From: an uncultured virus (IMG/VR IMGVR_UViG_3300021400_004213)
Taxonomy: Duplodnaviria > Heunggongvirae > Uroviricota > Caudoviricetes
DNA: 64,000 nt
IMG/VR virus record: IMGVR_UViG_3300021400_004213
Strand: one strand, 5' to 3'
In this document: piece by piece, positions 18,561 to 62,499 of the stretch
Layout of the letters: each line of letters begins with the position of its first letter
Position numbering within the stretch: the stretch's first letter is position 1
Translations under genes and position numbers: made by a program
The notes under the pieces: generated by a model
Database searches by the model: none
What the model was told of the DNA's origin: nothing
The model's input: only the letters and a program-made list of their open reading frames with translations

Positions 18561-20411
18561 ATGGGCATCAAAAATTTCACAGGGCAAGACCCTGATAACA
18601 ACAGCAATAGTGGTGGTCTTCCTCCCACAGGCGGAAATGGCGGCGGAATGCCAGCCATCTTTCCTGGTATGGATATCCCTGGCGCACTCGACCCCATGGA
18701 AATGCTGATCAACTACAATGACGAGTTTAAGACCGCTGGTCCAACTCTCTATCGAGAGGAAGTTGTTCAGCAGACACTCAGCGTTCTTATCGGCAAGAAC
18801 AAGCCCAATGCATTGCTTGTCGGTCCTGCTGGTGTCGGTAAAACAAAAATCGTCGAAGACATCGCCTATCGTCTCGCAAACGATGACCCGCTTATCCCTG
18901 ACAAACTGAAAGGTCTTATCATATATGAACTTCCATTATCAAACGTCGTTTCAGGAAGTTCCCTTGTCGGTCAGTTGGAAGAAAAGGTTCTCGCTGTCGT
19001 AGACTTCATCGAAGACCCAAAGAACAAAGCCATCCTTTTCATGGATGAAATCCATCAGCTGGTATCTTCCACTTCACCTACGTATCAGAAGGTCGCACAG
19101 ATTCTCAAGCCTGCCCTTGCCAGAGGCAAGATGAAGGTTATCGGCGCAACCACTACACAGGAAGCCAAGGATATGATGGACGACCCTGCATTCAACAGAC
19201 GATTCTCTAAGATCATCGTCGATGAATTAACCAAGGCTCAGACGGTTGACATCCTCATCGCAGCTAAAGCTGGCTTCCTCGCACATCACAATCATCGCAT
19301 TGCTCTGAATGATGATATTCTTCAGACCGTGGTTGAACTTGCTGAGCAGTACAAGCCTGCTGGCAGTCATAGACCTGACAATGCACTTACACTGCTTGAC
19401 AGAACCATTGGCGATGCTATCATCAACCGCAAAAAGCAGGAAATTCTGCTCTCGAAAGACCCTAATCAGGCAACGGCTTTGGCTGCGCTCAAAGCCATCA
19501 AGCAGATTCCTGTCACAGAAAAACAGATTCGTCAGACAGCCGTCAAGTTGGCTACTGGCAACAGCAAGCCTGATACACTTGACATTGATGCGCTGAAACA
19601 GGCACTTTCTGCCATTAAGGGACAGGATACCATCATCAACCAGTTGATTCTGGAACTTCGCAAGCATGAGATGAATCTCCTGCCTACTACTCAGCCTATG
19701 ACGCTCCTTTTCATCGGACCGTCAGGTGTCGGTAAGACAGAAGTTACAAAAATCATCGCACGTGCAATCACAGGTTGTCCGCCTATCGTCCTCAACATGA
19801 CGGAATATAATTCCGCAGCATCTGTAAACCGCATCATCGGTTCCCCTGCAGGATACGTCGGAAGTGACTCTCATGCTGAGCTTCCTTTCGATGCTCTCGA
19901 ATCAAACCCGTATCAGATCATTCTGCTTGACGAGTTTGAAAAATGTGACGATGCCGTCAAGAAACTGTTCATGCAGGTCTTTGACGAAGGATATCTTAAA
20001 ACAAATAAGGGTTCCACAATCGACTTCTCACGTTCGATTATCATCGCAACGACCAATGCTGGTCACGATGTTGTCGAACAGCCTCTCGGCTTTATGAGCC
20101 GTATGGCAACACAGAACACCAAAACAGCCGTAAAAGATCTTACAGGCTACTTCGATATTGCTCTTCTGAACCGATTCAAGGACAGAATTACGTTCAATGC
20201 GATCAGCAAGGACGTTTATCGTGAAATTATCATTGCGAAATATCATAAAGCATTGGCTACCATTCGTGCATCCAAGCAGCGTGTTACGCTTCCCGATGAT
20301 ATTCCTGATGACGTACTTGATAAAATCGTCGAAGAAACTTACGTTCCTGAATTCGGTGCAAGGCCCGCAGCTAAAGCAGTCGAAGATTTCATCTACGGAG
20401 AGGTGCTGTAA
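18561..20411 (+). CDS. Clp/Hsp100 double-AAA+ ATPase lacking the N-terminal domain
   Basis: GPAGVGKT/MDEIH/GATT; GPSGVGKT/GSPAGYVG/LDEFEK; PLGF loop; FGARP. Confidence 0.9.
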   Translation: MGIKNFTGQDPDNNSNSGGLPPTGGNGGGMPAIFPGMDIPGALDPMEMLINYNDEFKTAGPTLYREEVVQQTLSVLIGKNKPNALLVGPAGVGKTKIVEDIAYRLANDDPLIPDKLKGLIIYELPLSNVVSGSSLVGQLEEKVLAVVDFIEDPKNKAILFMDEIHQLVSSTSPTYQKVAQILKPALARGKMKVIGATTTQEAKDMMDDPAFNRRFSKIIVDELTKAQTVDILIAAKAGFLAHHNHRIALNDDILQTVVELAEQYKPAGSHRPDNALTLLDRTIGDAIINRKKQEILLSKDPNQATALAALKAIKQIPVTEKQIRQTAVKLATGNSKPDTLDIDALKQALSAIKGQDTIINQLILELRKHEMNLLPTTQPMTLLFIGPSGVGKTEVTKIIARAITGCPPIVLNMTEYNSAASVNRIIGSPAGYVGSDSHAELPFDALESNPYQIILLDEFEKCDDAVKKLFMQVFDEGYLKTNKGSTIDFSRSIIIATTNAGHDVVEQPLGFMSRMATQNTKTAVKDLTGYFDIALLNRFKDRITFNAISKDVYREIIIAKYHKALATIRASKQRVTLPDDIPDDVLDKIVEETYVPEFGARPAAKAVEDFIYGEVL

Positions 20412-25418: not shown

Positions 25419-25450
25419 GATTCCACATGTCCCCCTTTCAATTAGTAAAC

Positions 25451-25568: not shown

Positions 25569-25569
25569 T

Positions 25570-25598
25570 ATTATAACATAAAACATGCCATTTATCAA
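25570..25598 (-). promoter_or_regulatory. sigmaA-type promoter
   Basis: TTGATA-17 bp-TGnTATAAT. Confidence 0.75.
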
Positions 25599-25610
25599 CA
25601 ATTTAAACAA

Positions 25611-26087: not shown

Positions 26088-26096
26088 AACTATCAA

Positions 26097-26291
26097 TCAT
26101 CCTTTCCGACGCACGCTATTTAACATACGCTGCGTTCTCGTGACGTCTTCAGTAACAGCTACACCAGATTCATACAATTGCTCGACACGCTTCTTATGAG
26201 CGGTAGCCTTCTTACGACCTTCCTGCATTTTCTGTTGCTGTTCAGGAGAAATTGTACGTTTCTTACCGCTATGTTTTCTTCTTTTCGCCAT
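26097..26291 (-). CDS. small basic hypothetical protein
   Basis: GGAGGT RBS before ATG (MAKRRK). Confidence 0.6.
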   Translation of the reverse strand: MAKRRKHSGKKRTISPEQQQKMQEGRKKATAHKKRVEQLYESGVAVTEDVTRTQRMLNSVRRKG

Positions 26292-26336
26292 TTCTGTATA
26301 CCTCCGATATAATAGAGTAGACATTCATCTATCCCT

Positions 26337-26365
26337 ATTATATCGAAAAACCTCTCATAAATCAA
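26337..26365 (-). promoter_or_regulatory. sigmaA-type promoter overlapped by the palindromic operator
   Basis: TTGATT-17 bp-TATAAT; box at 26354-26365. Confidence 0.7.
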
Positions 26366-26368
26366 GAT

Positions 26369-26782
26369 TTATTTGCCAAATTCCACACCCGCATCTTTCG
26401 ATACATCTTCTGACAAATCTACACCAAGAACACGAGCGGCTCTTTCATAACGTGACAAACTATTCTCAGATGACTGTACCACACCAGACTGTTTTGTTAA
26501 CATTTCCTTTGAAGCCATCTCTGTTCCCCATGTCACGCCATGTTCTGCATCCAAAGAAGGCACAGGTAAAGATTTACCTGTACGTTCCAAAACATGAGCA
26601 CCAGCAATACGAGCCTCAAAAGCCGACTCAACAAAATCCAGCTGATCCTCACGAGAACCTTTGGCATACACATCATTCTCAAGACCGCGATTGTATTTAT
26701 TCATAGACATCTGATAATCAACATACTGACGATCTACAGACGGCTGTTGTACAATTCCATTTATATCAAGTTTCTTAGCCAT
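26369..26782 (-). CDS. hypothetical protein
   Basis: GAAAGGAG RBS; C-terminus DAGVEFGK. Confidence 0.65.
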   Translation of the reverse strand: MAKKLDINGIVQQPSVDRQYVDYQMSMNKYNRGLENDVYAKGSREDQLDFVESAFEARIAGAHVLERTGKSLPVPSLDAEHGVTWGTEMASKEMLTKQSGVVQSSENSLSRYERAARVLGVDLSEDVSKDAGVEFGK

Positions 26783-26975
26783 AGCCAAAACACTCCTTTC
26801 AGTCTGATAGTGGAAGCATCATAATATCCTTCTGCTGCTTTCATCTATACTCTAAACCAAAAACCTCAATAATGGAAGAGGTTATTTTTCAAACTGATCA
26901 AAGAAATTCCAAAAGAAAATGGCTCAACATCATAGATGCAGAGCCATTTATTTGAAAATAACAAAACGAAAAGAT

Positions 26976-27743
26976 TTAAACCATGACAGCCTGATAAAGC
27001 AAGCCTAAGATTAAAAGATGCAACGGATAAAACACATAGAAACCATATCTACGAATGGCGTTGCGTTTTTGAATCTTCGTTCCATCATAGAAAAGCATAA
27101 ATGGGATTGCCAACAATGCGCCAGGTGTTCCATACGAAACTGCCACAAACAACGCCACGAACGAGCCTGGAATCCAAAATTGCCAGTCAGGATGTGCATT
27201 CCACATCCAGAACACCAAGCCACACAGCGGCACGATAATAAAGCAATAATCTACGATACAAAACACTGCTGCGATACTTAAAACGCCAATAACCAGCAGA
27301 TTCGCACTTAAATAAAAAGTTTTATCTAACTCTCCTGCTTCATACATCATATGAATCTTTCGCATACACATAATGGTCAGCGAACCAAAAAACCATGACA
27401 ACATGACATTTTGGTACGAAAATTCTAACCATACATGCTTAAATGCAAAATCAAAACAAGGTTCTGAAATCACGGCAAAAATACCGAGTAATAAAAGATG
27501 TTTTGTCATCTTCTTCGTGTACATCATACCTTGAATAAACAAGGTACAGAATATCGGAAAAGCAATACGTCCGATAACACTACGTAACAAAACATATAAA
27601 AACGAATTTTCGCCATACAATGGTAAGACAAAAACTTCACCAATATGATCACATAACATTGCGATACAAGCAATAATCTTCAAGACATCCCTTGATAATA
27701 CTTGTACCTTCTGTGGAATCACTACCGATTTTTTCGTATTCAT
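26976..27743 (-). CDS. traX: TraX-family membrane acyltransferase
   Basis: LKIIACIAMLCDH, GRIAFPIF, SEPCFD, QNV, FYVFYPLHL. Confidence 0.8.
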   Translation of the reverse strand: MNTKKSVVIPQKVQVLSRDVLKIIACIAMLCDHIGEVFVLPLYGENSFLYVLLRSVIGRIAFPIFCTLFIQGMMYTKKMTKHLLLLGIFAVISEPCFDFAFKHVWLEFSYQNVMLSWFFGSLTIMCMRKIHMMYEAGELDKTFYLSANLLVIGVLSIAAVFCIVDYCFIIVPLCGLVFWMWNAHPDWQFWIPGSFVALFVAVSYGTPGALLAIPFMLFYDGTKIQKRNAIRRYGFYVFYPLHLLILGLLYQAVMV

Positions 27744-27752
27744 ATCTCAATC

Positions 27753-27923
27753 TCACATACCAAATACCTTAGACATAACGAACATAAACAGCCTATCAAT
27801 TCCAAAAAAACAGCCACCAGTAATAACTGATAAAACTAATACACGCAACGACGTACCCATCAATGTACCAAACGATGGGTATTTCATATTATTTGCGTAC
27901 CTTGATTTGCCACCACTTCTCAT
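27753..27923 (-). CDS. secE: SecE-like preprotein translocase subunit (56 aa, absent from the ORF track)
   Basis: Hand translation MRSGGKSRYANNMKYPSFGTLMGTSLRVLVLSVITGGCFFGIDRLFMFVMSKVFGM matches the SecE K-x-W/Y-P...T..V...TM...D pattern. ATG is 1 nt after the secY stop. Confidence 0.7.
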   Translation of the reverse strand: MRSGGKSRYANNMKYPSFGTLMGTSLRVLVLSVITGGCFFGIDRLFMFVMSKVFGM

Positions 27924-27924
27924 A

Positions 27925-29280
27925 TTACGGCCTCACTTTCGAAAACAGTACGAACTGATTCGCAGTTCGTTCATGCTTGAACTCAGACATTTCCTTCATA
28001 TAACCAATGTACCGAGCACTACGCTTCTCTACCTTCCAAGTATACCATGTATCATTTACGACAGATACAATAATAATGAGTGATGTTCCAAGAAAACTCA
28101 ATGACGGAACACCAAACACACGACTCATTACAATTGGAAGTGCTGCCAATATACAGAGTCCAAAACAACCTAAGAAATTCAGCTTACCGCCATATTTTTT
28201 CAAATAATTCTCTGTCTCAACGCCAGGAGCCACACCGACAATGACGGCACCTGATTTCTTCAAGTTTGATGCCACTTCAATTGGATTCATATTGACCAGC
28301 TGTGTATAATAACCAAACACAAAGATCATAAAGAAATAAATCAGCAATCCAATCGAAGCCACTGGATCTGAAAAATCCAACCACTTGTTCATATCAAAGA
28401 TACGAAGCCACGCAGCATTACCACCGAAAAGAGATGCAATAATCGAAAATACACTCAAAAAACTCGATGCAAAAATAACAGGTAAAACTGAATTTGGCAA
28501 CATCTTCAACGGCAAAACGCTGTTTTCATATACCAATTCATTATCAGACGTTGATTTATGATTATATTCCAAACGCACATCACGTTCTACATAATTCAAC
28601 CAATTTACAAAAATCAACATCACTAAACTAACAAAGACTACAACACTGACGAAAATCCAGTATTCAGATGATTTTCCTGACACTGACTGTGCTCTCGTAA
28701 GCATATTCGCAATTTCATGCGGAACATTACTTAAAATACCAGCAAGTAGGAACAACGAAATACCATTACCAAACAATTCGTCATCAATATAGTTTCCCAT
28801 AAAGGCAAACAGAATGGAACAAAGTGCCATGATGACAGTGCAAACTAACATTGCAACCCAATCGGTACGTACAAAAACACCATACGACATATAGGTGTTT
28901 AAAATTCCCAAAGAGGAAACAATACTTGTTATAATACTTAACCCGATTGTCAGCTGTTTAATCTTCTTCCGTCCAATCGCACCACTTCTTTGCAATTCAG
29001 CAATACTCGGAATCACAATTCCAAAGATTTGAATAAAAATCGATGCTGAAATATACGGTGAAATACCAAGCCCTGCGATGGATACACGTGACAACGCACC
29101 ACCCGTAAGAATATTCAACACACCAAATGATTCACCTAAACCTGATCCTGCAAAAAATGCATTTACATCAGTGAATGGTAATGGTATACAACATAACAGT
29201 CGATAAATTAGCAAAAACAAAATCGAACCGATCACTCGCTTTGCTAATGATTTTTTCTTCCACTTTCCTGCTACAATCAT
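27925..29280 (-). CDS. secY: preprotein translocase SecY (divergent)
   Basis: IPLP, LGISPYISASIFIQ, GNGISL, PVIFAS, NLKKSGAVIVGVAPG.ET, GTSLIIIVSV; about 10 TM helices. Confidence 0.92.
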   Translation of the reverse strand: MIVAGKWKKKSLAKRVIGSILFLLIYRLLCCIPLPFTDVNAFFAGSGLGESFGVLNILTGGALSRVSIAGLGISPYISASIFIQIFGIVIPSIAELQRSGAIGRKKIKQLTIGLSIITSIVSSLGILNTYMSYGVFVRTDWVAMLVCTVIMALCSILFAFMGNYIDDELFGNGISLFLLAGILSNVPHEIANMLTRAQSVSGKSSEYWIFVSVVVFVSLVMLIFVNWLNYVERDVRLEYNHKSTSDNELVYENSVLPLKMLPNSVLPVIFASSFLSVFSIIASLFGGNAAWLRIFDMNKWLDFSDPVASIGLLIYFFMIFVFGYYTQLVNMNPIEVASNLKKSGAVIVGVAPGVETENYLKKYGGKLNFLGCFGLCILAALPIVMSRVFGVPSLSFLGTSLIIIVSVVNDTWYTWKVEKRSARYIGYMKEMSEFKHERTANQFVLFSKVRP

Positions 29281-29334
29281 ACGTGAAAACTCCTTTTGTC
29301 CGATCAATCTTTAAAACTGCTCGTTTATGAACCT

Positions 29335-29515: not shown

Positions 29516-29797
29516 ATGACAAATCTGACAAAAGAACATGTGATTGAAGCTATGGTTGCACAGGAAAAGGGCCTCTCTAAGGCTGCTGCTGACAGACTTC
29601 TGAGACTGACAGCAAAGATGATCAAGGAAGCCGTCGCTGAAGGTGGTCGTGCTACATTCCCTGGTTTTGGCACCTTTGTTGCTGTTGACACCAAAGAGCG
29701 TGAAGCTGCCAATCCTCGTACTGGCGAAAAGATCACTGTTCCTGCAGGCCGCCGTATCAAGTTCAAGGCTGGTAAGGCGTTCAAAGAATCTCTGTAA
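29516..29797 (+). CDS. hup: HU-family DNA-binding protein
   Basis: GFGTF, REAANPRTGEKITVPA, KFKAGK; GGAGG RBS. Confidence 0.92.
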   Translation: MTNLTKEHVIEAMVAQEKGLSKAAADRLLRLTAKMIKEAVAEGGRATFPGFGTFVAVDTKEREAANPRTGEKITVPAGRRIKFKAGKAFKESL

Positions 29798-29819
29798 TTA
29801 TCACTTTACAGATAGAAAT

Positions 29820-29850
29820 AAGGCCGAGTGCATCAGCACTCGGTCTTTTT
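29820..29850 (+). terminator. intrinsic terminator
   Basis: GGCCGAGTGC-ATCA-GCACTCGGTC followed by TTTTT. Confidence 0.85.
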
Positions 29851-29857
29851 CTTATTA

Positions 29858-30559
29858 TTAGCAACAATCCCATGTATAAAACACATCAGAAAAATCCATC
29901 TGTTCTAAATCTTCTTTTCGAATAAAGAAATTCGCAACACCCACATCGCCCCACATGATAATGTCTTTATAAGAATCCATCTGGAACAATAACATATCGT
30001 ATTGTTTGTTACTACCCTTTCGTGGGTCATATTGTGTGAAAAAAGGATATCCTAACAACTTACTACCGCCACCGCTGAAAAAATTATAAGCTTCTTCATC
30101 TTCGATAATCTCCGACTCATCCGCATAATCAGCGAAACGATAATCTGAATATGACATGAACTCTGTAGTCAATTCAAAAGTCATTCGACATGGCTTCAAC
30201 ACAGGAGAATCTTTGTATTGCTTCCAAATCTCAATCCCATCATCTCGTACACACTCGTGATAAACAACCAAACTTCCATTTTCCTTGAACAAACCATAGG
30301 TATTATCCGTTCCAACAAAAAATTGCAACATACCATGATTCGGGAAAATGTCGTTCTCTGGCAACTCAGCAAGATTAATCTGTGCTAAAAACATCAAATC
30401 TGGTGATTCGCCACTATTGGGCCAATAAAATGACCCACCAATCTTACTTGTTCGATAATCACCACTATCATCTTCGATGTATGTGATATCAAACATCGGT
30501 GTTGATGGTAGAATAGACTTCAACTCATCAATCAAAGTTCCTTTCTCTTCAGCATTCAT
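29858..30559 (-). CDS. YwqG/DUF1963-family protein
   Basis: SKIGG, FLAQIN, GMLQFF, LLGYPFFTQ.DPR, WGDVG, WDCC. Confidence 0.85.
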   Translation of the reverse strand: MNAEEKGTLIDELKSILPSTPMFDITYIEDDSGDYRTSKIGGSFYWPNSGESPDLMFLAQINLAELPENDIFPNHGMLQFFVGTDNTYGLFKENGSLVVYHECVRDDGIEIWKQYKDSPVLKPCRMTFELTTEFMSYSDYRFADYADESEIIEDEEAYNFFSGGGSKLLGYPFFTQYDPRKGSNKQYDMLLFQMDSYKDIIMWGDVGVANFFIRKEDLEQMDFSDVFYTWDCC

Positions 30560-30587
30560 ATTGCACCTCTCTATAATTATATTATCA

Positions 30588-31979
30588 TCACCAAATAATT
30601 ATTGGTGTATATACATCACGATTTTTAATTACATTGAAAATATAATCTACTGTTTCATATGGTGTATTAATACACCCATGAGAACCATCACTTACATAAA
30701 TATTTCCACCGTAAGATGAACGCCAAGAAGAATCATGAATACCAACGCCATCCAGCGTAACACGAATAAAATAATGACAGAAAGCACTACCATATGACCC
30801 AGTCATGGTATGCTCTGTATACAAATCAGTAGTACGATACATACCTGTTGGAGTTGCACGAGATGGATCATCACGAGTACCCGTGATAACATTAGCATCA
30901 GCCGTACATACACCATTCTCAATAAACCACAGGTGTTGATCATTAATACTAATTTCAACATATGTATCGCCAAAATCGTTGTCTTCTCCATGCGCAACGG
31001 ATTTATAAATCCATGGCACAGTGATTTCCGCGTTGCGACCAGAGCGTAACGCCTCAATCAGCAGGTCATACAGACCAGCATCATCCAAAAGCCAACCAGA
31101 CAAATGACAAACCGTCCTGTTCTCAGATGACACATCATCCAATATTACCGTTTCGCCTGTAGACGTATGGAAAGTACGAGACTGTCCTCTCGTATTATAC
31201 TTCGTACCGAGAGATATAACATATTCCCGCACCTTATCTTCATCAATCGTAAAACGACCATTCACGACATTTCCAATGTCGTTTAGAACATCTTTCGGCA
31301 CTTGGATAGATGTACCATCACCAAGATCCAATTCAATCTGAGTTTCTTTGAAACTACTTGCCTGTTCTTTTAGATTCAATAAATTTTCATCATCTTCTCG
31401 AACATCGGCAAGCGCATAGCAACCATCTTCTAACAAATCGACATCATATGATGCATCAGCAAGACTTGCAACAATTGCATCTTTCAATTTATAAATATCG
31501 ATTTGCGTTCCTATCATATCAGGAACAATCTGATAGTCTCCATCTTCTGTTTTAACTACATATGCATCAGTTGGTGCTAAATTTCCCGCAGAAACACAAC
31601 CCAAACGACTTACTGCATTCAGCAACGTCGTTTCATTATATGACAACGCATTATCCGTTGTATAATAGCGCTCCGTAAAAAACGAAATAGGCCATATAAA
31701 AGGACTTGTCAATTTCGAAGCAGACTGTAAATCACCAACACGTGTAATTCCGAGTTGATCAAAAGTTGCAACTTCAGTTGCACCATCAGGCATATAAATC
31801 GTAACAATACGATTTCTTGTTCGATTGGTCATTTCAATGGATAAATCCATACTCGTCTTATAAAACACATCTTGCCCATCAATATGGTCACCATATAAGA
31901 AATGCCCAGAAAAAACCAAAACACCAGAGAAATAAACAAAGAGCAGACATACTATTAATATCCACCATCGACGCCTCAT
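30588..31979 (-). CDS. membrane-anchored L,D-transpeptidase (YkuD domain)
   Basis: N-terminal TM helix, YVEISINDQHL, TPTG, GIHD, SHGCIN. Confidence 0.88.
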   Translation of the reverse strand: MRRRWWILIVCLLFVYFSGVLVFSGHFLYGDHIDGQDVFYKTSMDLSIEMTNRTRNRIVTIYMPDGATEVATFDQLGITRVGDLQSASKLTSPFIWPISFFTERYYTTDNALSYNETTLLNAVSRLGCVSAGNLAPTDAYVVKTEDGDYQIVPDMIGTQIDIYKLKDAIVASLADASYDVDLLEDGCYALADVREDDENLLNLKEQASSFKETQIELDLGDGTSIQVPKDVLNDIGNVVNGRFTIDEDKVREYVISLGTKYNTRGQSRTFHTSTGETVILDDVSSENRTVCHLSGWLLDDAGLYDLLIEALRSGRNAEITVPWIYKSVAHGEDNDFGDTYVEISINDQHLWFIENGVCTADANVITGTRDDPSRATPTGMYRTTDLYTEHTMTGSYGSAFCHYFIRVTLDGVGIHDSSWRSSYGGNIYVSDGSHGCINTPYETVDYIFNVIKNRDVYTPIIIW

Positions 31980-32101
31980 AAACGACAACCCTCTTTTCCA
32001 TAAAAGACCTAAAAAATAAGCGCCGCCCCTGTCAAATCAAGAGCGGCACTCAGGCGAACTATCAAGCACAAACATGCCGTCAATCGACCATGCCATGTTG
32101 A

Positions 32102-32437
32102 TTACTCACGATCACTATCGCGAACCTTCTTGTTCAACACGTTAGAAGATGCAAACTTCACGACACGATAGTCACGAACAGCACCTTTCTTTCCACCAAA
32201 CTGAACTGGATGTCCCTTATGAAGTTGTGCGTAAAACGATCCAAATCCAGTAAACGCTACGCGATGACCAGCACAAATTAATTCAATTAACTCGTCAATG
32301 CAAGCCTTAAATACCTCTTCGACGGTATACAAATCACGAACAGTTCCATCCTCAGATGGGTACTGCTCGGCTAGTTTTGCTTTTACATTTTCGAGAAATT
32401 TATCTTTATTGATTTTGTCATATGCTTGTTTATTCAT
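32102..32437 (-). CDS. second, divergent HU/IHF-like protein
   Basis: GHRVAFTGFGSF, VVKFASS..L. Confidence 0.75.
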   Translation of the reverse strand: MNKQAYDKINKDKFLENVKAKLAEQYPSEDGTVRDLYTVEEVFKACIDELIELICAGHRVAFTGFGSFYAQLHKGHPVQFGGKKGAVRDYRVVKFASSNVLNKKVRDSDRE

Positions 32438-32552
32438 AATCCAAATACTCTCCTTATCATACAAAAAAATTTGTAGATAAGCGTTGCTCATTCACACACT
32501 CAATCATGTTTTATTCATAAATGAACAAAACGTTTTACCCTCTTTAACAGTC

Positions 32553-32581
32553 AGTATACAACAGATTTTCAAAAAATACAA
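32553..32581 (-). promoter_or_regulatory. sigmaA-type promoter with downstream operator box
   Basis: TTGTAT-17 bp-TATACT; TTCATAAATGAA at 32514-32525. Confidence 0.6.
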
Positions 32582-32628
32582 CTGGGTTTTGAAAAAAACT
32601 CATATTTATGAGCAGATTTCCAAAAAAA

Positions 32629-33060
32629 TCAATACTCATACTCTTGGTGATCTTTATCGCCAATACCAGTGATGCCAGAAATATCAGGTAAACGACGAAG
32701 GTCTTTACCAAATAAAGCTCCGCCAATATCATTCGAAAGGTTATCCACACCTTTCTGCATCTTATGACGAGTATAAGCAGCACCGCCAACAACTGCGCCA
32801 ACTGCAACGGCATTGGCAATACCAACTTTCGTTAAAAAACCACTCTTATTCGGATCTTCCTCCTCAGCAGACATATCGTCCTCTTCAGCCTTCTTGTTCT
32901 TTGCATCATCAGGTGATTCTTTTTCATCTTTCTTGTTCTTCACATCACCAGATTCATCGTTTTCTTTACCAGAATTCTTCTTATTCTTTTTCTTTTCAGC
33001 GTCCTCAGCTGTCGTTTGAGCCAAAGTCATATCCATTTCGGTTTCATCATACATAGCCAT
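32629..33060 (-). CDS. charged hypothetical protein with C-terminal RRLPDISG motif
   Basis: AAGGGAG RBS; acidic/Lys-rich N-half and one hydrophobic segment. Confidence 0.7.
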   Translation of the reverse strand: MAMYDETEMDMTLAQTTAEDAEKKKNKKNSGKENDESGDVKNKKDEKESPDDAKNKKAEEDDMSAEEEDPNKSGFLTKVGIANAVAVGAVVGGAAYTRHKMQKGVDNLSNDIGGALFGKDLRRLPDISGITGIGDKDHQEYEY

Positions 33061-33083
33061 GATTCAATCTCCCTTCTCACAAA

Positions 33084-33902
33084 TCATTTAGAAAAATCCT
33101 CTAATGCGGCTTCATAATCATCTACAGAAACACCCATATCGTGAATCAAAGGATTATCTATACCAAGTTTTGATAATTTCAAATCATCACTCTTAGTTTC
33201 TGTATATCCTGCATGAGCCAACGCAGCGGCTCTTGCTTCATCATGAATCTCACGTTTCATTGCTTCCCCAGCAGCTTTACGTTCAACCAAATCACCAGTT
33301 TCTTTTCCTGCTGCCACAGCAACCATCGTTTCACGTAATGCGGCATTACGATCTTCCAAATCCACATGGAAGGCATCGTCAGGAGCAGACGGAGCCTGTT
33401 CTTTCAAATCTTCTACATATTCATTATATTCAGCCGTACCCATCTGCAACGACGTTTGCGTCTTTGCATCATTTTCATGTGTATCAAGAGGCTTGAATAC
33501 AATAAACTGTTGCCTACGTTTCTGTTGTTTATCTTTTGCAACAAGTTTCTCAAGCTTCGTCATTTCCTGTACTTCAGCTTGTCTCGTCAAATGCAACTCT
33601 TCCGCTTCTTCAAAATGATGTTTTGCCTGACAATACGGGCAATCCACATCTCGCTCATCACGACCTATATAAAATACGTGACCGCAATTTGGACACAAAC
33701 ACTCAACCAAATTATCTTTGCTCGTATCAACAACATAAGTATCTGATTGAACAGCACGCTTACGAGAAGCATCCTTTGACTTTTGCATAAGACGGAGATT
33801 GCGGTCATCATCATTCGTATCGTTTGAACGGGAACCGCCAAACACATCGACTATATCCAGGTCATCATCCATGACCATAATATCATCGGGAACCATAATG
33901 CC
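33084..33902 (-). CDS. acidic protein with zinc ribbon
   Basis: CPNCG...CPYC. The AGGAGGT RBS suggests a start near 33896-33902; start uncertain. Confidence 0.65.
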   Translation of the reverse strand, partial: GIMVPDDIMVMDDDLDIVDVFGGSRSNDTNDDDRNLRLMQKSKDASRKRAVQSDTYVVDTSKDNLVECLCPNCGHVFYIGRDERDVDCPYCQAKHHFEEAEELHLTRQAEVQEMTKLEKLVAKDKQQKRRQQFIVFKPLDTHENDAKTQTSLQMGTAEYNEYVEDLKEQAPSAPDDAFHVDLEDRNAALRETMVAVAAGKETGDLVERKAAGEAMKREIHDEARAAALAHAGYTETKSDDLKLSKLGIDNPLIHDMGVSVDDYEAALEDFSK

Positions 33903-33969
33903 GTACCTCCTTTCATTTCCCATAATAACACTAAAAACAGCAAAACAAAAGAGGTAAAATATTGATTAA

Positions 33970-34572
33970 TCAGCCAAATTCATCAAAATGATATCCATCA
34001 TCAGGTAAATCATGGTTCGGACCGTCAATACTAGACACATAATTACCACGCTCATCATCATAATAAACATGTCCATCTTTCGTGGCTGTATCCTTCGCTA
34101 ACGCCCTAAAATTTTCTCGATTTGCACGCTTCTCTGCTGCCATACGTTCTTTACGATACGCAGAATATTCATCACCAAGTGCCTGAAGAGTATCAGCCGA
34201 CAAAACATCGTCAACATGATAGACAGCATCGTACAAATTTTCTCTTGCACCAGCAATATTATCCTGATGATTCACATCACCAAAATTTTCGTTATGAACT
34301 AACGAATCCATATATGCAGGCAGACGACCTGCTTCCATATCTTCACGAGTAAATCCTTCACGTTCTAAAACAGCATCATTTAATGCTGGAACTTGAGGTT
34401 CATATTCGGCACGCACCGATTCCTGTGCTTCATAATCATAAAATGATTCTGTTGCGGCAATAACCCTATCGTTAATGAATGGAACAGATGCTGAACGAAC
34501 TTCACCAAATTTACTCATATCTTTATCATATCGATCCACGAATGACAAATCCAATTTATAGCTTTCAGCCAT
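33970..34572 (-). CDS. acidic hypothetical protein downstream of the RNAP gene
   Basis: GGGAGG RBS; C-terminus HDLPDDGYHFDEFG. Confidence 0.7.
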   Translation of the reverse strand: MAESYKLDLSFVDRYDKDMSKFGEVRSASVPFINDRVIAATESFYDYEAQESVRAEYEPQVPALNDAVLEREGFTREDMEAGRLPAYMDSLVHNENFGDVNHQDNIAGARENLYDAVYHVDDVLSADTLQALGDEYSAYRKERMAAEKRANRENFRALAKDTATKDGHVYYDDERGNYVSSIDGPNHDLPDDGYHFDEFG

Positions 34573-34647
34573 CTCAAAAACCTCCCATATAGAACGATTG
34601 CACAGTCAATGACCATTACAGCCATTGGCTGTGCATATCATTACTCA

Positions 34648-37600
34648 TTAACTATTCGGACCATCATTGCCATCTTGCAAATCTTCAGGGCCTTTCACAC
34701 CACTGATATCAGGCAACTCACGATGCATTTTCTTACCATCAGTAGGTGCAGAAGATTTCTCTGTATCCGTTACAGGCGCCTCAGCTGTCTTCGTAAAGTC
34801 ATACTTGAAAGTACTACCCTTACCAGCAGCGGCGGCCTTCGCAGCAGGATCAAATCCAGCAGATGTCGAAACATCTTTACCACGGAACGCCTTTACGTCG
34901 CCTTCACTCTCAACAGAAAGGTCCACCGCACTATTTCTAACATCAATAGTGTTATGTACCATACGAGTATCCGATGGCTGAATAGCCTTCATCTCATCGG
35001 CATGACCATCTGCAGCCAATTGCATATTACGACGAATCTGTTCAGGCGCAAACTGATAGCTCGCAGAACCCTCATACAGATTACGTCCTTCCTGTGCCAT
35101 AGAGTTCAACAAATCACGCGCACGACCATCTGTCTGATAATAAGCAAGCTGGTCAACAGGAGATACATACTTACTGATAACCTGCGGATCCTCGATATTC
35201 AACATACGACCATCTGGACCAACCATAGCATCAGCAACACGCTCAACATCTTCGCGGCTCACAGAACCGCCAAGGTCAAGACCCTTCTTATCTTCATGAA
35301 CTTCCATGAATGTCTTAACCCATTCATCACGGGTAGCCTGAATTGGCTTACCTGTACCTCTATCATAAGCCACACGCCAATGAGGAACGCCCTTATCATC
35401 CGTACTCTTCTCCATGGAATAACCACGCCACAAATTACGGATATCAGCGTTTACTTTATCTTCCAGAATCTGAGCCTTTACTGGGTCATGCTTTGCCTGC
35501 AAAATACCCTGCGTTGCCAAATAAGACAAACGCAAACCCGACTCCAAAGCACCCGCATTCGGTTGCTCAGGTTCAAACTCAGACGCCTTATTACGAAGGA
35601 ACGATACCATTCGCTGCGAAACAGCACCCGCATTACCAGTACAATGTGCCTTGATAGCAGTAGATTTCTCGACATCACGAATATTCTGTTGTGTAACCAA
35701 CTGTTCCTCGGAAACCTTAACACTCTCTGGCAAAATACGTCCATCAGCATCATGGTCAGCCGTAAATCCTGCATACTGCATATAAGAATTCAGCTTACCC
35801 ATACTACCTTTTGCCTTATGGTCAACGACCGTAATCAAAGATTGCATTAAAGCTTCAGGACTCTTAAACGACAATGCTTCAGAGCCAACACCCTTGAATA
35901 CATCCTTCGTATAATCAGACAATTCACGCATCAAGTCCTTATTCTTCTGCATACGATCTTCAGCAGACAAAGATGTATCACGATAAACATCATTGTATTC
36001 ACGCTCTAAACGAATACGACGCTCACGAAGCGTTTCAGGCAATGCATCAACAGCACTCTTATATGCATCAGTTCCTTCGCCGTACTGTGCTTTCAACTTT
36101 TCCAAAGTTTCAGCACGACGCTCATTGTCAACTTCCTCATTGGAAATGACATCCATCGAATCGTTGAACATCAGTGCATAATCACCTTGACGGAAACCTG
36201 CAGATGCATCTTTTTCGCCACGAACACGTGAAAAATCAAGCATATTCTGATCAAACGAGAACAGACGATAGGCTTCTTCCTTCGCAGCATCTGTCTGAAC
36301 AGACTGAATAGCAACAGAGTCACCATCGAAGTCACCATCAAACGAAACAGCAATCGCTGGGTTAACAGCACAACCATGAAGTTCAGGATCAACCTTCACA
36401 TCCATATAACGCATACCATACGTACGAAGCAACGGGTCACGTGCAATCAATACACGGTCACCATCTTTCACACCGAGCTTGTCAGACAAACCAGGTGACA
36501 ATGACACTTGATTCAAATCCAAAGATGGATCTGGTGTCCAAACAGCCGTTGCAGACTTCGACATACGACGTGCCATCACAGAATCACGGAACAAATTATG
36601 TTTCGTATCCAAGATACGAGCATATACATCGTCCATGATACCATTATAATCTTGCTGAGCACTCCTCTGAGCATCAGACATTGCTTTACGACATTTCTCT
36701 TTATCAGCATCCGTTCCAGCAGTTGCCAAGTCAGCCTCAGCCTTCAAATATTTAACACCATTCTCATAAATACGCTGATACTGATTCGTATAATCATGCG
36801 TCATCTTCGTACCATCTTCGAATGTCTGTCCACTACGCAAATGCGAGGACATGACAGGTAACGCATACATTGCATGACCATTACGCTCCACACCTTCAAT
36901 CGGCTCTGTCTTCTGAGAAACACCCGTTTCTGGATTCGAAGCCATCTGTTCCAACGGGAACGGAAGTTCCATGAAACCGCCACGGCTACCAACCGTATCG
37001 GCAAACAACTTACCAAGATCTTTCGATTCAATATTAGCCAATGTTGCATCGTCAGGCATATGGAACGGATATCTCTCTTCGCCATTATGTGGCTTATATC
37101 CAAAACGGACATCACCTGTCTCAGAGAAATCCCAACCTAACGTATTCATATATTCACGAAGATTCGTTACTGCAGAACTGTTCGGACCATAATATTCAGC
37201 CATCATTGCAGGAGCGCCTTTAGCTGTCAACATCCAGCCCTGCTGAGCGGAGACCTTACGGCCTTTACCCTGCTTAACATCATCATCGTCATAACTCTTT
37301 GTATGATCTTCTGCTGTATGATGTGTAATCGTTACAGGCATGTAAGCAATACCGCCTTCCACAACACGATCATCAGACAACTTTAAATCTTCATGAGATT
37401 CAAGACCAAACTTCGCAGCAGCCGCATTAAAACGGCTACATGGTGAATATGGAGACTGAACAATATCCAAAGTTGGATTGTTCTTAAACAACTCAACGAT
37501 ATCCGTCAGTCCACGTTTCTCCGCCTCTGCTGGATCCATATTACGGTCTACAACCAGACCAACGATACTCTTGTTACCAGAGCTATCGCAAATCTTATCA

Positions 37601-41236: not shown

Positions 41237-41265
41237 ATCATACCAAAGAAAATACAAAATGTCAA
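41237..41265 (-). promoter_or_regulatory. sigmaA promoter facing the RNAP gene
   Basis: TTGACA-17 bp-TGnTATGAT. Confidence 0.8.
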
Positions 41266-43372: not shown

Positions 43373-43476
43373 AAGAAGTGGCATTCGCTTTATATAACAA
43401 CAAATACACTTACACAAGTTATTCCGAGTGCAACACGGATATAACTTCTTACACACAAAGGAGAAAAAGACTCGTT

Positions 43477-43917
43477 ATGATCAATAAAATTGACATTTTT
43501 GACGGCGAACACGCTTTCCTCAGCAACTTCTATCGTGCTGATGTCGAATTTGAAGGCGTCATTTATCCCACAAATGAACATGCCTTCCAAGCCGCCAAAA
43601 CCTTAGACCCGAAAATCAGACAGGAATTCCTCACCGAATGTCCGACTCCTGGCAAAGCCAAACGAAAAGGCCGCCACGTTGACCTTCGACCCGACTGGGA
43701 AAAAATCAAAGTGAACATCATGAGAACCATTGTGCGGAACAAGTTCAACGCACACCCTACGCTCGCAGCAAAGCTTCTCGCTACGGGAGATGCCACTCTC
43801 ATTGAAGGAACTACATGGCATGACCTCTTCTGGGGTATAGACATTACCACAGGTAAAGGTGAAAATCATCTCGGTCAGATTCTCATGCAGGTCCGAAAGG
43901 AACTTCGTCCTAAGTAA
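43477..43917 (+). CDS. NADAR (YbiA-like) family protein
   Basis: FLSNFY, YPTNEHAFQAAK, LRPDWE, KF, LLATGD..LIE, FWG, GENHLGQILM. Confidence 0.92.
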   Translation: MINKIDIFDGEHAFLSNFYRADVEFEGVIYPTNEHAFQAAKTLDPKIRQEFLTECPTPGKAKRKGRHVDLRPDWEKIKVNIMRTIVRNKFNAHPTLAAKLLATGDATLIEGTTWHDLFWGIDITTGKGENHLGQILMQVRKELRPK

Positions 43918-54454: not shown

Positions 54455-55114
54455 TCAATTTGTCAAGACATAACACTGAATATTCGATACAACACCTTGA
54501 TCATCTACATCATAAGTGGCAATCAACTGACCTGAAGAAGTTCCCTTACCACCATAACCAGAAGATACGATATTAATCTGTGCAAAATACGAATAAACCG
54601 TTCCTTTCACATCCATCACAAACGTCTGTAAGTCTGTAAACTGCATGTTGCGTCCATCATCCAACGGATTGCTAACAATCTCGCCAGAAGCATCTCGAAC
54701 CACAACACGATCTACTGCTGGAAAGAACTCTCGTAAAAATTGAGAGTTTTCATCTAAGAAATCATACTTGTTCACAAGATGATTTCTCTGCGATTCATAC
54801 GTTTGAGAACTGCTCCATGTCGTAGCATACTTAAATATATCAGCCGCTATCCCATCATCAACAGTCTTACGCCCAATCTCGTAACCAGCAGGAACAACAT
54901 CCTTATCGACCCTGTTTGTAATATCTTTCTGAGTATCACTATTTGATTCCGATGAAACACTCAATTCATTGATCTCGGCATCCAATTTACCAAGTTCTCT
55001 CGTCCACTGTTGATTCGCAATAGACGTACCAACAAAGAGACCAATGGCCACCAAGACCAACGCAAGCGGAATGCCGAAATTAGACCAAAAAGCACTTGCA
55101 AAAAACTTCTTCAT
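54455..55114 (-). CDS. bitopic membrane protein (possible conjugation-channel accessory)
   Basis: N-terminal TM helix, coiled coil and extracellular domain; in an operon with a PG hydrolase. Confidence 0.6.
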   Translation of the reverse strand: MKKFFASAFWSNFGIPLALVLVAIGLFVGTSIANQQWTRELGKLDAEINELSVSSESNSDTQKDITNRVDKDVVPAGYEIGRKTVDDGIAADIFKYATTWSSSQTYESQRNHLVNKYDFLDENSQFLREFFPAVDRVVVRDASGEIVSNPLDDGRNMQFTDLQTFVMDVKGTVYSYFAQINIVSSGYGGKGTSSGQLIATYDVDDQGVVSNIQCYVLTN

Positions 55115-55881
55115 CAGTCGCTACCTCCTGAATCTTCTGTAGAATCTTTCGAAGAACCAAGTCCCGAAATACCAATCAATTCTTTCACACTATCAACAAA
55201 CTCATCGACTTCGCGATCATCGTCGTTGATATCATCGTTTCCCGTAAATGCAACAGCATTACTACCATACGCAGTCCAATGCAAAGATGCGTACTTAAAC
55301 GAATTTGTCGCTTCGGAATAATATGCCGAAACATATACTAAAATATGATTCACATCATCCGTCAACAACCAAACAACAGGCACATAATCGCTATTCATCT
55401 GCGACGCAACATAGGCTGTCCACTTTACATTACCAACCTTTTCATCAGGCATAAACCATGACTCTCTAAACGCAGAATCCTCAGGAAAATACGGCGCCAA
55501 GCCATCTTCTCTAAGAGAAATGATAGCAGCTTTCGCATCTTCATCCTCATCGAACTCAGAAATACCAATCTTCGATATAAGCTCAGGGTATTTCATCTGC
55601 ATTTCTGTCACCGCATCCGCCGCAGACTTTGCTCGAACAAATACAGCTTTCGTATCATCATCCACCACAGATGATGATGTACCATCATTTGACGAAGTCT
55701 GTGGTTGCTGATTTACAGAATCCATAGTCTGCGATTGACTCTGTTGTGCCAGCCGAAGAGTTTCCATCTTAGCATCACGTGCACGAACATACGCTGATTG
55801 AGATTGCATAAAATACACAGCACCTACAATCAATATCATTGCACTTATGCCAAGAACCACATATTTAATCGTTTTACTCAT
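55114..55881 (-). CDS. bitopic membrane protein
   Basis: GGAGGAG RBS before MSKTIK; TM helix and Ser/Gln linker. Confidence 0.65.
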   Translation of the reverse strand: MSKTIKYVVLGISAMILIVGAVYFMQSQSAYVRARDAKMETLRLAQQSQSQTMDSVNQQPQTSSNDGTSSSVVDDDTKAVFVRAKSAADAVTEMQMKYPELISKIGISEFDEDEDAKAAIISLREDGLAPYFPEDSAFRESWFMPDEKVGNVKWTAYVASQMNSDYVPVVWLLTDDVNHILVYVSAYYSEATNSFKYASLHWTAYGSNAVAFTGNDDINDDDREVDEFVDSVKELIGISGLGSSKDSTEDSGGSD

Positions 55882-55898
55882 AAGTCTCTCCTCCTGCA

Positions 55899-57743
55899 TC
55901 AACTATCACCGCTGGCATTGCCAATATATGCATTTTTCTTAATGCCATTATAACTACCAATATAACGATATACTTTGTATCCTTCGTTATGTCCATAGTT
56001 ACCCATTTCACCAATACCTGGGGAACGCGATTCATATGATGCATGCACCATCTCGCCTGGATTTCCAGGATATTTCTTTTGGACTTCTTCGTTACCGACA
56101 TACATCCAAATATGACCATGCTCACAATGCTTACCACGAGCTTCGCTACGACGTTGTCTCGTTGTTACAAAAATATCACCTGGCTGGAGCGGTTCACTCA
56201 ATGTATCATAAAGACCTAAGTCTTTCCACAATTCTGGATGCGTAGACATATACACATCCTGTGCACTTGTATCACCAACAGGGAAATTATCATCAGCGCC
56301 AGACCACACAACGGCAGTCGCAACACCACGGTCACACGACTGATAAATCCAGTCGCCAGGATACACAGCGTCCTTGACAGCCTTATATAACTCTGTGCCA
56401 TCGTTACCACGACTTTCGTCAATTGTCGGCCATGCATACGCAACAGCCGCCGCTGCAAGTGTCGAATTATCAGCCTGCGGTTCCTTTGGTAAACATTCTT
56501 CCTCTACCGCTTTCTTATGTTTATCTGTCGCCGCAGATACTACAGAACCTGCCATAGTAACCACATCATTTGCAAATCCACTAAATTCTCGTGTAATCGC
56601 TGCAGACTGTGGCGCAAGTGCTGTATACCAATACTGAGCGTATTGTTGTCTCTCAGGAGATTCGTATCTCTCATATTCAGGCGTATTCGATGTTCGTTCA
56701 ACATATCCCAGCCATGCGGCAGCCGCATCACGAACATTCGTCTTTGCCTTTGCATCATTCATGAAAGCCTGAATGTGTGCTTGCCACTCTGCACTACCAA
56801 ATAAATTGGCTAACTGCAGATCCATATCATACCAATGTTTACCAGCATGTCCTCTTGCATACTCAATTAACTCTTTTGCTTCATGCCCTGTCCATTGTAT
56901 CAAACCCAAACCACAAATATAACCCGACGACGGATTACCATATTCAATACAATAACCAGGCATAGATGGATTAGAGAACGTACCAGACTTATACGCATGG
57001 TAAATCGTGTTCAAAACATGAGACTTCATCTGCTCATTCGGAAACTCATTGCCTTCAGGCAACAACGCTGCCTTTTTCGGTCCAATCTGAAATGGTTCAC
57101 TAGAAACACATTCCACCGCGAATGGATCAAAATAACCACTCTCTTGCTGCATGTTACCAAGCATACCAGCACACTGTTCATCGGTCATACCCAATGCTTT
57201 GCCAACAGCCCAAATCTTCTTGGCGTTTTCAAGCATCTGCTCATTCACATCAACTGCAGGGGGTGTCATTCCGCTCAATTTATTCGCTTCATCTACCATA
57301 TCTGCACAAGGATCCCAATAATCCTCCTGCTTAAAAATCATCTGTTGATGCTGATAATTTATAAGACTAATTACACCTGATGAACCACCACCGAGTAACA
57401 AGACAGCTAGAGTGATACTCATAACCTTTTTAGATACATTCATGAATGATGCGGCTTTACCGACACCATCAGACACACCATGAGCAATTGGCTTAATACC
57501 AAACCAACTGTTCTTGACTGCATAGAAAACATTTTTCATTGCACCGCCAGCTGTATTAGCGGCAGAATCTGCAAATTCTTTTGCATTCTTCACAAAATTC
57601 ACATTCTGTTTGGAATATACATTAGTTACATCACGAGATTCACCTTCAGGCTTCACTTCGTTTGGAGAGTTAATTGGAACAACTTTTCTGACAAACGGCT
57701 GCGGAGTATTTCCGCCAGAAGAATCATTTGCTCGCTTCAACAT
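55899..57743 (-). CDS. membrane-anchored bifunctional peptidoglycan hydrolase (lysozyme-like + NlpC/P60-CHAP-like)
   Basis: AGMLGNMQQES, GLGLIQWT, WYDMDLQL; C-terminal SCDRGV, LQPGDI, GHIWMY. Confidence 0.8.
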   Translation of the reverse strand: MLKRANDSSGGNTPQPFVRKVVPINSPNEVKPEGESRDVTNVYSKQNVNFVKNAKEFADSAANTAGGAMKNVFYAVKNSWFGIKPIAHGVSDGVGKAASFMNVSKKVMSITLAVLLLGGGSSGVISLINYQHQQMIFKQEDYWDPCADMVDEANKLSGMTPPAVDVNEQMLENAKKIWAVGKALGMTDEQCAGMLGNMQQESGYFDPFAVECVSSEPFQIGPKKAALLPEGNEFPNEQMKSHVLNTIYHAYKSGTFSNPSMPGYCIEYGNPSSGYICGLGLIQWTGHEAKELIEYARGHAGKHWYDMDLQLANLFGSAEWQAHIQAFMNDAKAKTNVRDAAAAWLGYVERTSNTPEYERYESPERQQYAQYWYTALAPQSAAITREFSGFANDVVTMAGSVVSAATDKHKKAVEEECLPKEPQADNSTLAAAAVAYAWPTIDESRGNDGTELYKAVKDAVYPGDWIYQSCDRGVATAVVWSGADDNFPVGDTSAQDVYMSTHPELWKDLGLYDTLSEPLQPGDIFVTTRQRRSEARGKHCEHGHIWMYVGNEEVQKKYPGNPGEMVHASYESRSPGIGEMGNYGHNEGYKVYRYIGSYNGIKKNAYIGNASGDS

Positions 57744-59692: not shown

Positions 59693-59835
59693 AATATATA
59701 GACCTCCATTTGTAATATCGCAAAATAAATGCATGATTTATCCAACATATATAGAATAGCACAGAAAGATTGATTTATCAACATATTATCTAAAAGAGCC
59801 GTGAAAAGAATTATTCACGGCCCTATTTAGCGCAA

Positions 59836-62487: not shown

Positions 62488-62499
62488 ATCTGACTCTCC

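Follow-up and report, generated by a model that had tools for sequence, protein, structure and literature searches.

Why should a very large RNA polymerase (RNAP) and a small, unrelated protein of the same operon end in the same short peptide, and what might recognize it? The question is raised by a 64,000-nucleotide stretch of the IMG/VR record IMGVR_UViG_3300021400_004213, here called the window, which is filed as an uncultured virus of the Caudoviricetes and carries genes for a 2094-aa RNAP and a tagged 143-aa protein. Judging from sequence comparisons, we consider the shared C-terminal tag to be a genuine, selected short linear motif that ends a disordered linker. As to its function, we tentatively favor a docking or translocation label for the coupling-protein apparatus of a family of large conjugative plasmids.

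The RNAP ends in HRELPDISGVKGPEDLQDGNDGPNS and the 143-aa protein in LRRLPDISGITGIGDKDHQEYEY. Both tails contain the core R-x-L-P-D-I-S-G, with its arginine at position -24 in the RNAP and -22 in the 143-aa protein, just as an earlier, sequence-only reading of the window had them. That reading had also pointed to differing synonymous codons, which we found for four of the seven shared residues (L, TTG/TTA; I, ATC/ATT; S, AGT/TCT; G, GGT/GGC). When all six frames of the 64 kb are translated, the string LPDISG is found at exactly two places, each time 14 to 16 residues before a stop. None of the 11 direct-repeat families in positions 32500-35000 links the two tag sites, indicating that the tag pair is not a DNA repeat. 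When the 35-aa tails of the 64 window genes were compared without gaps, the RNAP and the 143-aa protein gave the highest BLOSUM62 score of the 2016 pairs (45; mean, 16.6; standard deviation, 3.8; second best, 35), and this score was reached by 1 of 5000 shuffled versions of both tails. A score of 35 between the NrdD tail (..LPDGTLITGIG) and the 143-aa protein was judged to be due to chance, and a LysM-like reading of the tail, based on PLAELSGIKDP in the LysM protein at 2249-3139, was judged coincidental. Net charge over the final 15 residues is -3 in both proteins, the terminal residues being ..GPNS in the RNAP and ..EYEY in the 143-aa protein. A low-complexity linker rich in Ala, Gly, Ser, Thr, Lys, and Asp lies N-terminal of the RNAP tag.

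The sequence-only reading had extended the tag to the 200-aa protein encoded between these two and to an ORF given as 26369-26782. Their tails read as described, but both show only a looser acidic/aromatic ending, and the full tag is limited in the window to the RNAP and the 143-aa protein. The start codon of the second ORF lies 6 nt further upstream, at 26369-26788. For its 139-aa product, no family was found in Pfam or PHROG, and one homologue was present among the loci examined below. A sortase LPXTG signal was rejected as an explanation of the tag: in the motif LPD[IV]SG a hydrophobic residue replaces Thr, an acidic Gly-rich tail follows where a sorting signal has a hydrophobic segment and a basic tail, and the carrier is a cytoplasmic RNAP, not a protein with a signal peptide. 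Genuine LAHTG pilin signals were found elsewhere in relatives.

Lack of conservation in RNAP homologues had been named beforehand as grounds for giving up the tag. We found 74 RNAP homologues, of which 57 had nonredundant tails (38 closer and 19 distant). The motif R-x-[LVIM]-P stood at positions -20 to -29 in 22 of the 38 closer homologues, and a looser pattern was found in 30 of the 38; the tag is thus conserved at the protein level and passes this test. In RNAP homologues, the motif density was 15.65 per 1000 positions in tails and 0.77 in bodies, and homologues with the tag are only 40 to 57% identical across the C-terminal region (residues 1500-2094). Several subtypes could be recognized, namely, R-x-LPD[IVT]S[GN], RE[LV]PASFEA, RPLP[DENG]G.E, and R.VP..MQE[IV]AD. 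The layout of the tail in most relatives is the core, then an acidic Gly-rich stretch, and then a hydrophobic or aromatic residue 1 to 4 positions from the C terminus. The form R-P-L-P-x-x-P also resembles an SH3 ligand, which we record as a lead only.

The 143-aa protein has nine database homologues, which were aligned in 14 rows together with four syntenic counterparts. In this alignment no variation is seen at G88, R122, and P125 and almost none at L124 and I127, and the N-terminal half varies freely; R122, L124, P125, and I127 of the tag are the most conserved positions of the family. Gene order is kept in relatives and runs from the RNAP through a ~200-aa acidic protein, sometimes a ~480-aa protein, and a zinc-ribbon protein related to sigma region 4 to a small hydrophobic protein, an HU-like protein, and a YkuD transpeptidase. 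Tails of the R-P-L-P type were seen on several unrelated families of this syntenic operon. In loci L072 and L073 further tails of this type occur on proteins encoded 8 to 10 kb upstream, and L072 has four tagged proteins.

Scans with the RNAP alignment yielded 16 genome, 78 metagenome, and 24 IMG/VR loci. Many of these were near-duplicates, and 36 nonredundant loci were used, reduced by tail identity alone; locus genes were taken as the longest nonoverlapping ORFs, so that some are spurious. Enrichment at C termini, which the sequence-only reading had proposed to check, was evident in the RNAP operon. In the first five proteins downstream of the RNAP, R-x-[LVIM]-P occurred 22 times per 5846 tail positions, compared with 16 per 38781 body positions, and tails of other locus genes had 9 per 12654 positions. 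At least two tagged proteins were found in 10 of the 36 elements; the window's own element was counted with three, one of which is a 78-aa ORF judged spurious. Acidic/aromatic ends, for which the last 12 residues had to have a net charge of -3 or lower and the last 4 had to include an aromatic residue, were found on 15/36 RNAPs, 22/36 first-downstream proteins, 41/158 downstream proteins, and 14/342 other genes.

Within some elements, tails resemble one another. In locus L055, three proteins share LP.GM.[DE].[LV] and a ..F[GD].. end: the RNAP has ..LPHGMVDVL..DGDFGG, and its neighbors have ..LPPGMVDML..DSFDF and ..LPPGMDEMV..QMFGV. Actinomyces elements have ..DDGFEL on the RNAP plus its neighbors, and one complete relative, G003, has acidic/aromatic ends on six consecutive genes. 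Over the 36 loci, mean tail similarity was 27.6 for the same element and 22.8 for other elements, a difference reached in 0 of 20000 permutations; kinship among the loci inflates this statistic.

From its motifs, the 2094-aa ORF is assigned as a fused beta/beta'-type RNA polymerase. The beta' barrel has DFDGD at residue 1534, with D1532-D1538 invariant in a 23-sequence alignment. The beta barrel has GDKICDSSGNKS at residue 1111, the GDK...GNK motif of beta-type barrels, of which G1111, D1112, K1113, G1119, N1120, and K1121 are all invariant in the same alignment. Rpb2 domain 6 (Pfam PF00562) is precomputed on distant homologues, and PDB matches are weak and confined to approximately residues 1438-1592, the catalytic barrel. 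The operon and the other features located in the window are given in Table 1.

Table 1. Features of the window discussed in the text (positions in the 64,000-nt stretch)
Feature	Position	Strand	Remarks
Beta/beta'-type (two-barrel) single-chain RNA polymerase, 2094 aa	34648..40932	-	Pfam RNA_pol_Rpb1_2, 5e-9, above cut-off
RNAP C-terminal tag RELPDISGVKGPEDLQDGNDGPNS	34648..34722	-	Core RELPDISG at 34699-34722
200-aa very acidic protein	33970..34572	-	Net charge -23; end HDLPDDGYHFDEFG
279-aa zinc-ribbon protein	33084..33923	-	Weak Zn_ribbon_4 match; end DDYEAALEDFSK
143-aa tagged protein	32629..33060	-	C-terminal tag RRLPDISGITGIGDKDHQEYEY; core at 32674-32697
HU-like DNA-binding protein, final gene of the operon	32102..32491	-	Pfam Bac_DNA_binding, 4.5e-5
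Promoter-like site 5' of the RNAP gene	41237..41265	-	TTGACA-17-TATGAT plus TG, 11/12 matches; consensus match only
Strong terminator-like hairpin ending the RNAP operon	32017..32052	-	15-bp stem with 8 GC pairs, then T-run
139-aa ORF	26369..26788	-	End DAGVEFGK; looser acidic/aromatic ending only
ClpA-like double-ring AAA+ unfoldase without N-domain	18561..20411	+	NCBIfam ClpA, 1.8e-101, below family cut-off
Cell-wall hydrolase module	54455..57743	-	Pfam Phage_lysozyme2, 4.7e-26

No family was found for the 200-aa protein in Pfam, PHROG, or NCBIfam; an Atlas search gave no usable functional lead, and the Atlas model had a pLDDT of 0.45. The 279-aa protein is 35% identical by BLASTP (7e-9) to a 406-aa protein of L055 that has Sigma70_r4. 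The 143-aa protein has a charged, variable N-terminal half and a Gly/Ala-rich hydrophobic segment at residues 75-93 (KD19 maximum, 1.56). Homologues of the HU-like protein adjoin the RNAP in 64 loci.

What kind of element carries this operon? Full-length RNAP homologues (30% identity) occur on plasmids of Rhodococcus, Streptomyces, and Gordonia; in pGKT2 of Gordonia sp. KTR9, the RNAP gene directly follows that of a type IV coupling protein, and RarA and SSB are encoded close by. Lachnospiraceae bacterium A4 is another cultivable carrier of a related element. The complete circular relatives G001 (192.5 kb), G002 (111.9 kb), and G003 (116.7 kb) have much of the window's backbone in common with it, namely, an SNF2 helicase, a primase-like protein, RarA, a 579-aa protein, a ClpA-like ATPase, a UvrD-like helicase, an HU-like protein, the RNAP, a D5-type primase-helicase, and the cell-wall hydrolase module. 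Homologues of this hydrolase in G001-G003 adjoin the relaxase and coupling-protein genes in a transfer-gene cluster. The complete relatives encode a MobL relaxase (2e-64; MobP2-like by NCBIfam) and a VirD4-like coupling protein, and G003 also encodes an actin-like partition protein, topoisomerase III, a sortase, and adhesins.

Neither the RNAP nor the 143-aa protein had a tblastn match in 50,697 phage records, 27 window proteins gave no match to a PHROG structural family, and the 57 G003 proteins scanned included no member of a capsid, terminase, or portal Pfam family. A phage origin, and with it a capsid-targeting peptide, was rejected on these grounds and because plasmid genes were found instead. 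Since MobL, the VirD4-like protein, and plasmid genes are present and no capsid or terminase family turned up in the proteins scanned, we read the family as large conjugative plasmids. It comprises circular elements of 105 to 230 kb from Bacillota and Actinomycetota, with hosts assigned from record titles. Six of these (G001-G003 and G006-G008) are complete 105- to 230-kb IMG/VR records with terminal repeats that are filed as viral. All six have genes for a relaxase and a coupling protein, and the proteins scanned contained no capsid or terminase family; they are probably circular plasmids misfiled as viruses.

The coupling protein is also linked to the RNAP by position. In 71 loci, or in 20 of the 36 nonredundant loci, a homologue of the coupling protein is encoded no more than 10 kb from the RNAP. 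A ClpB/ClpV-like ATPase usually comes first, then a ~730-aa protein, the coupling protein, a variable stretch, and the RNAP. The cytoplasmic part of the coupling protein includes a conserved C-terminal extension of about 300 aa. The relaxase, in turn, has a tail of related form. In eight elements, the MobL relaxase ends in ..DVSDDIELG, ..TDRSFGD, ..DSQDFGN, ..DFVDSVELG, ..MDSMELG, ..KEPEYEF, ..ELEYGF, or ..RNELTL, and the protein just 5' of it has an acidic/aromatic tail in all eight. A position matrix built from 52 RNAP ends ranked MobL 18th of 103, 8th of 105, and 2nd of 169 genes in the three complete elements; this ranking predates the search for relaxase homologues, although the three ranked relaxase tails had already been seen. 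The G003 relaxase has 979 homologues, and the 120 listed end mostly in ..S[VM]Q[FL]GE.

The relaxase C termini, to which the sequence-only reading had drawn attention, give that reading partial support in that they share a rare hydrophobic-Gly-Asp/Glu end with RNAP homologues, although not with the window RNAP. Terminal [FLMYW]-G-[DE] was found in 12 of 80 nonredundant MobL and 10 of 56 nonredundant RNAP homologues and was rare elsewhere (downstream proteins, 1/158; other locus genes, 1/342; genes of the three complete elements, 3/377); the pattern was devised after both sets of tails had been viewed, so that these counts are descriptive and do not constitute a test. Relatives of the window RNAP with ..LPDVSGILENDGNDGHGGLGE do carry the relaxase-like end.

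Two genes of the coupling cluster may themselves be interrupted. In G003 (57626-71901; L128-L129), the VirD4-like coupling-protein gene is split into three ORFs of 583, 209, and 404 aa, and the stretches between them hold several ORFs, including ones of 382 and 612 aa (DUF7487), one of 310 aa (DUF723), and a NADAR-domain gene. A similar split was seen in L088, and introns or homing elements are possible. In G002 (29749-33897; L121), the coupling-protein-linked Clp-like ATPase is 1382 aa long with LAGLIDADG and Hint matches, which suggests an intein.

We favor a docking or translocation label for the coupling-protein apparatus because the genes are linked, the terminal signature is common with the relaxase, the tag stands on several unrelated proteins, and there are precedents in conjugation; even so, we put its probability a little below even. 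The relaxase is the one certain substrate of a type IV secretion system (T4SS). The tag would be a short linear motif for docking, located where a disordered C-terminal linker ends, with a core of the form basic-x-hydrophobic-Pro-x-hydrophobic. It is carried by the plasmid RNAP and several unrelated proteins of the RNAP operon, and in a related form by the MobL relaxase and the protein just upstream of it. The VirD4-type coupling protein would presumably read the tag, possibly aided by the adjoining ClpB/ClpV-like unfoldase. The RNAP and its cofactors might then be recruited, unfolded, and passed into the recipient alongside the DNA, where the delivered RNAP would start transcribing the incoming plasmid. 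The full form of this proposal, that conjugative plasmids of 100 to 230 kb inject their own RNAP, sigma-like factor, and cofactors into the recipient through a type IV channel by means of a relaxase-related C-terminal tag and a ClpV-like unfoldase, is more doubtful.

Several observations weigh against a role in transfer. Delivery by type IV secretion was also the proposal of the sequence-only reading, and the plasmid family with MobL and a VirD4-type protein speaks for it. In the 64-kb window, however, searches of Pfam, PHROG, and NCBIfam found no relaxase, coupling protein, or other T4SS gene, and the 10-kb flanks of the RNAP in the clade nearest to the window (L019-L026 plus L052) hold no transfer genes. 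For VirB4, the complete relatives gave a weak, subthreshold NCBIfam match to a fragment (32.6 bits; cut-off, 590), and the three complete elements had no Pfam AAA_10 match. VirB/D4 signals are positively charged but the present tails are acidic, and the tagged small protein has a hydrophobic, possibly membrane-spanning segment, which would be odd for a translocated substrate. Terminal [FLMYW]-G-[DE] occurs in none of the 64 window genes; the window RNAP and the 143-aa protein lack the relaxase-like tripeptide, and no alternative frame supplies one. R-x-[LVIM]-P was found in 0 of the 19 distant RNAP homologues and only 4 of the 36 nonredundant locus RNAPs. Among all proteins of at least 140 aa, 23 of 430 tails had it, compared with 14 of 430 internal control windows, a small excess. 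Tails of the same element ranked first in 1 and among the top three in 8 of the 36 loci.

A Clp-type unfoldase might read the tag instead, which we consider unlikely. The tag would then time the degradation of the RNAP, its cofactors, and the relaxase through the ClpA-like ATPase and host ClpP, or serve unfolding alone, with no link to transfer. The unfoldase of the window is a candidate reader: it matches Pfam AAA, AAA_2, and ClpB_D2-small, and its gene is 45 to 51% identical to those of the complete relatives. Complete elements have two Clp paralogues each, one UvrD-linked, as in the window, and one coupling-protein-linked. After the second-ring TTNAG, presumably the site of the ClpP-docking IGL loop of ClpA, the UvrD-linked paralogue has a putative docking loop, PLGF in the window and VGF, MGF, or IGI in G001-G003; a loop of this type was found in none of five coupling-protein-linked paralogues examined, a point in favor of the coupling-apparatus reading. 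ClpP is encoded in G003 (1e-70), but it is absent from all five other complete elements searched, although host ClpP could serve. The ssrA tag works through a C-terminal, disordered, bipartite sequence, which also speaks for a degron. However, degrons of the ssrA type have nonpolar last residues (Leu-Ala-Ala type), whereas the window tails end in ..GPNS and ..EYEY and those of relatives in acidic residues and Gly, and acidic substitutions in ssrA block recognition by ClpX and ClpA. Furthermore, the ATPase has no N-domain or known adaptor, and tag and ATPase are linked by co-occurrence only.

It is equally improbable that the tag docks its carriers onto a common hub that builds a transcription/replication "establishment" complex on the plasmid DNA and has no export role. 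The carriers are DNA and RNA enzymes with their operon partners (the RNAP, the sigma-region-4-related protein, and the relaxase), and genes for HU-like, SSB, RarA, UvrD-like, and D5-primase proteins are their neighbors. Acidic, aromatic-bearing ends also recall SSB tips; the acidic, aromatic-ended tips of T7 gp2.5 and gp4 likewise bind common partners. The true SSBs of these elements end in ..DDDDIPF and ..SEDAPF, but no tagged protein has an SSB domain. In the tagged tails the aromatic residue is seldom final and there is no Pro-Phe end, the window tails closing with PNS and EYEY; they are therefore not SSB-tip mimics. Also against a hub, tags occur far from the RNAP operon (L072 and L073) and on the protein upstream of the relaxase, and no hub candidate was identified.

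Disordered acidic tails do score above average against each other, one shuffle did reach the observed score, and many elements show weak tail similarity only, but chance, compositional bias, or the remnant of a small duplication with no specific function is very improbable given that conservation in the small-protein family is highest at the motif positions, placement is fixed at -20 to -29 in RNAP homologues that have diverged widely, codons differ between the copies, and the motif recurs on several unrelated families.

Other genes of the window were also recorded. A 234-aa protein encoded at 46811-47515 (+) joins sigma-70 region 4 (2e-12) and the RNA polymerase alpha C-terminal domain (1e-17). 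It is unusual for two modules of promoter recognition to be fused in this way, here on a plasmid with its own RNAP. At 24270-29307 (-), a cluster encodes an M50/RseP-like protease with PDZ, a GNAT acetyltransferase, TraX, and a second SecY; SecY and TraX occur again in L019, and a SecY homologue occurs in G001. The cluster may be a plasmid-borne accessory export set. The PDZ domain of the protease was dropped as a tag receptor, being an extracytoplasmic domain. A MazF/PemK-like gene at 23337-23771 (+) follows the UvrD-like helicase gene, and no ORF of antitoxin size lies upstream of it. The two genes are paired in 39 loci, and the MazF-like proteins of Actinomyces elements have a long basic tail. 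Because MazE-type antitoxins use acidic tails to bind MazF, the MazF-like protein was considered as a tag receptor, but it was dropped because its gene is absent from G001, which has tagged proteins.

The anaerobic ribonucleotide reductase NrdD with its activase, ThyX, and gyrase A and B (9511-12740, 52875-53564, and 59836-63996) form a nucleotide and topology toolkit that is more usual in large phages. A 566-aa protein encoded at 58034-59734 (-) combines a serpin domain (1.3e-17) with a tail rich in Ala, Asp, and Glu. NADAR and macro domain proteins are encoded near the D5-type primase-helicase at 43378-43917 (+) and 46367-46801 (+), and NADAR occurs again in G003, with an acidic/aromatic end; these proteins may serve to reverse ADP-ribosylation.

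Should the tag prove to be a transfer signal, Gram-positive conjugation systems would have their first defined motif for protein translocation. Plasmids could then bring their own RNAP into a new host, which would change views of establishment, host range, and evasion of host transcription. This would be the conjugation counterpart of the virion-packaged RNAPs of phages and would make early plasmid transcription independent of the host polymerase. The tag would offer a way to list candidate transferred proteins in metagenomic plasmids, and the plasmid family is large, unstudied, and common in gut and oral metagenomes. Under the rival explanations, too, it would be a new short linear motif that links an uncharacterized RNAP, unknown cofactors, and a relaxase. 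In the literature that is open without subscription, we found no description of the tag or of two-barrel RNAPs on conjugative plasmids of bacteria.

The tag can be compared with several C-terminal signals. Like the signals of the VirB/D4 and Dot/Icm systems, it is short, probably unstructured, located in the last 20 to 40 residues, and carried by unrelated proteins. T4SS signals lie in an unstructured last 20 to 50 residues, and the tag core at -24/-22 after a predicted low-complexity linker falls in this range. The Dot/Icm signal has a Glu-rich "E-block" and a hydrophobic residue near the end and is acidic like the tag, whereas VirB/D4 signals differ from it in charge. The probable carriers here include the relaxase family, the defining substrate of conjugative T4SSs. 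In contrast, the proline-containing core is not known from any T4SS signal, nor did the literature examined describe one with it, and the hosts are Gram positive. The type VII signal of EsxB is an extreme C-terminal peptide with an end of the hydrophobic-Gly type and is read by EccC, an FtsK/VirD4-like ATPase. The ends ..QFGE, ..GLGE, and ..DFGG of our proteins may resemble it, but there is no WXG fold or YxxxD/E motif, and the secretion system is a different one. Like the ssrA tag, the present tag is bipartite and C-terminal, and the element encodes a Clp ATPase such as reads ssrA; the ssrA tag, however, is added by tmRNA, whereas this one is encoded in specific genes and has no Leu-Ala-Ala-type end.

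As a polymerase, the window RNAP can be compared, by its described features, with single-chain two-barrel RNAPs such as YonO of the SPbeta prophage, likewise a mobile-element-encoded single polypeptide with both double-psi beta-barrel motifs (PMC5467207). YonO has a mass of about 100 kDa, approximately half that of the window RNAP, which differs in being plasmid borne and coupling-protein linked; the abstract of PMC5467207 mentions no C-terminal tag. In their available portions, PMC2919709 covers yeast plasmid and phage RNAPs only, and PMC5512222 reports virion-type RNAP modules in phages only. The latter also describes the conjugative transfer of the primases TraC1 (RP4) and Sog (R64), and the F-plasmid T4SS transfers ParA, ParB, SSB, and PsiB according to the available text of PMC8406263. 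The window encodes a 2094-aa two-barrel RNAP, for which delivery is a proposal, rather than a primase or a T7-like RNAP. The traveling enzymes known so far, to which the virion RNAP of phage N4 belongs, are early-acting proteins that arrive with the incoming DNA, and a coupling-protein-linked RNAP would fit among them.

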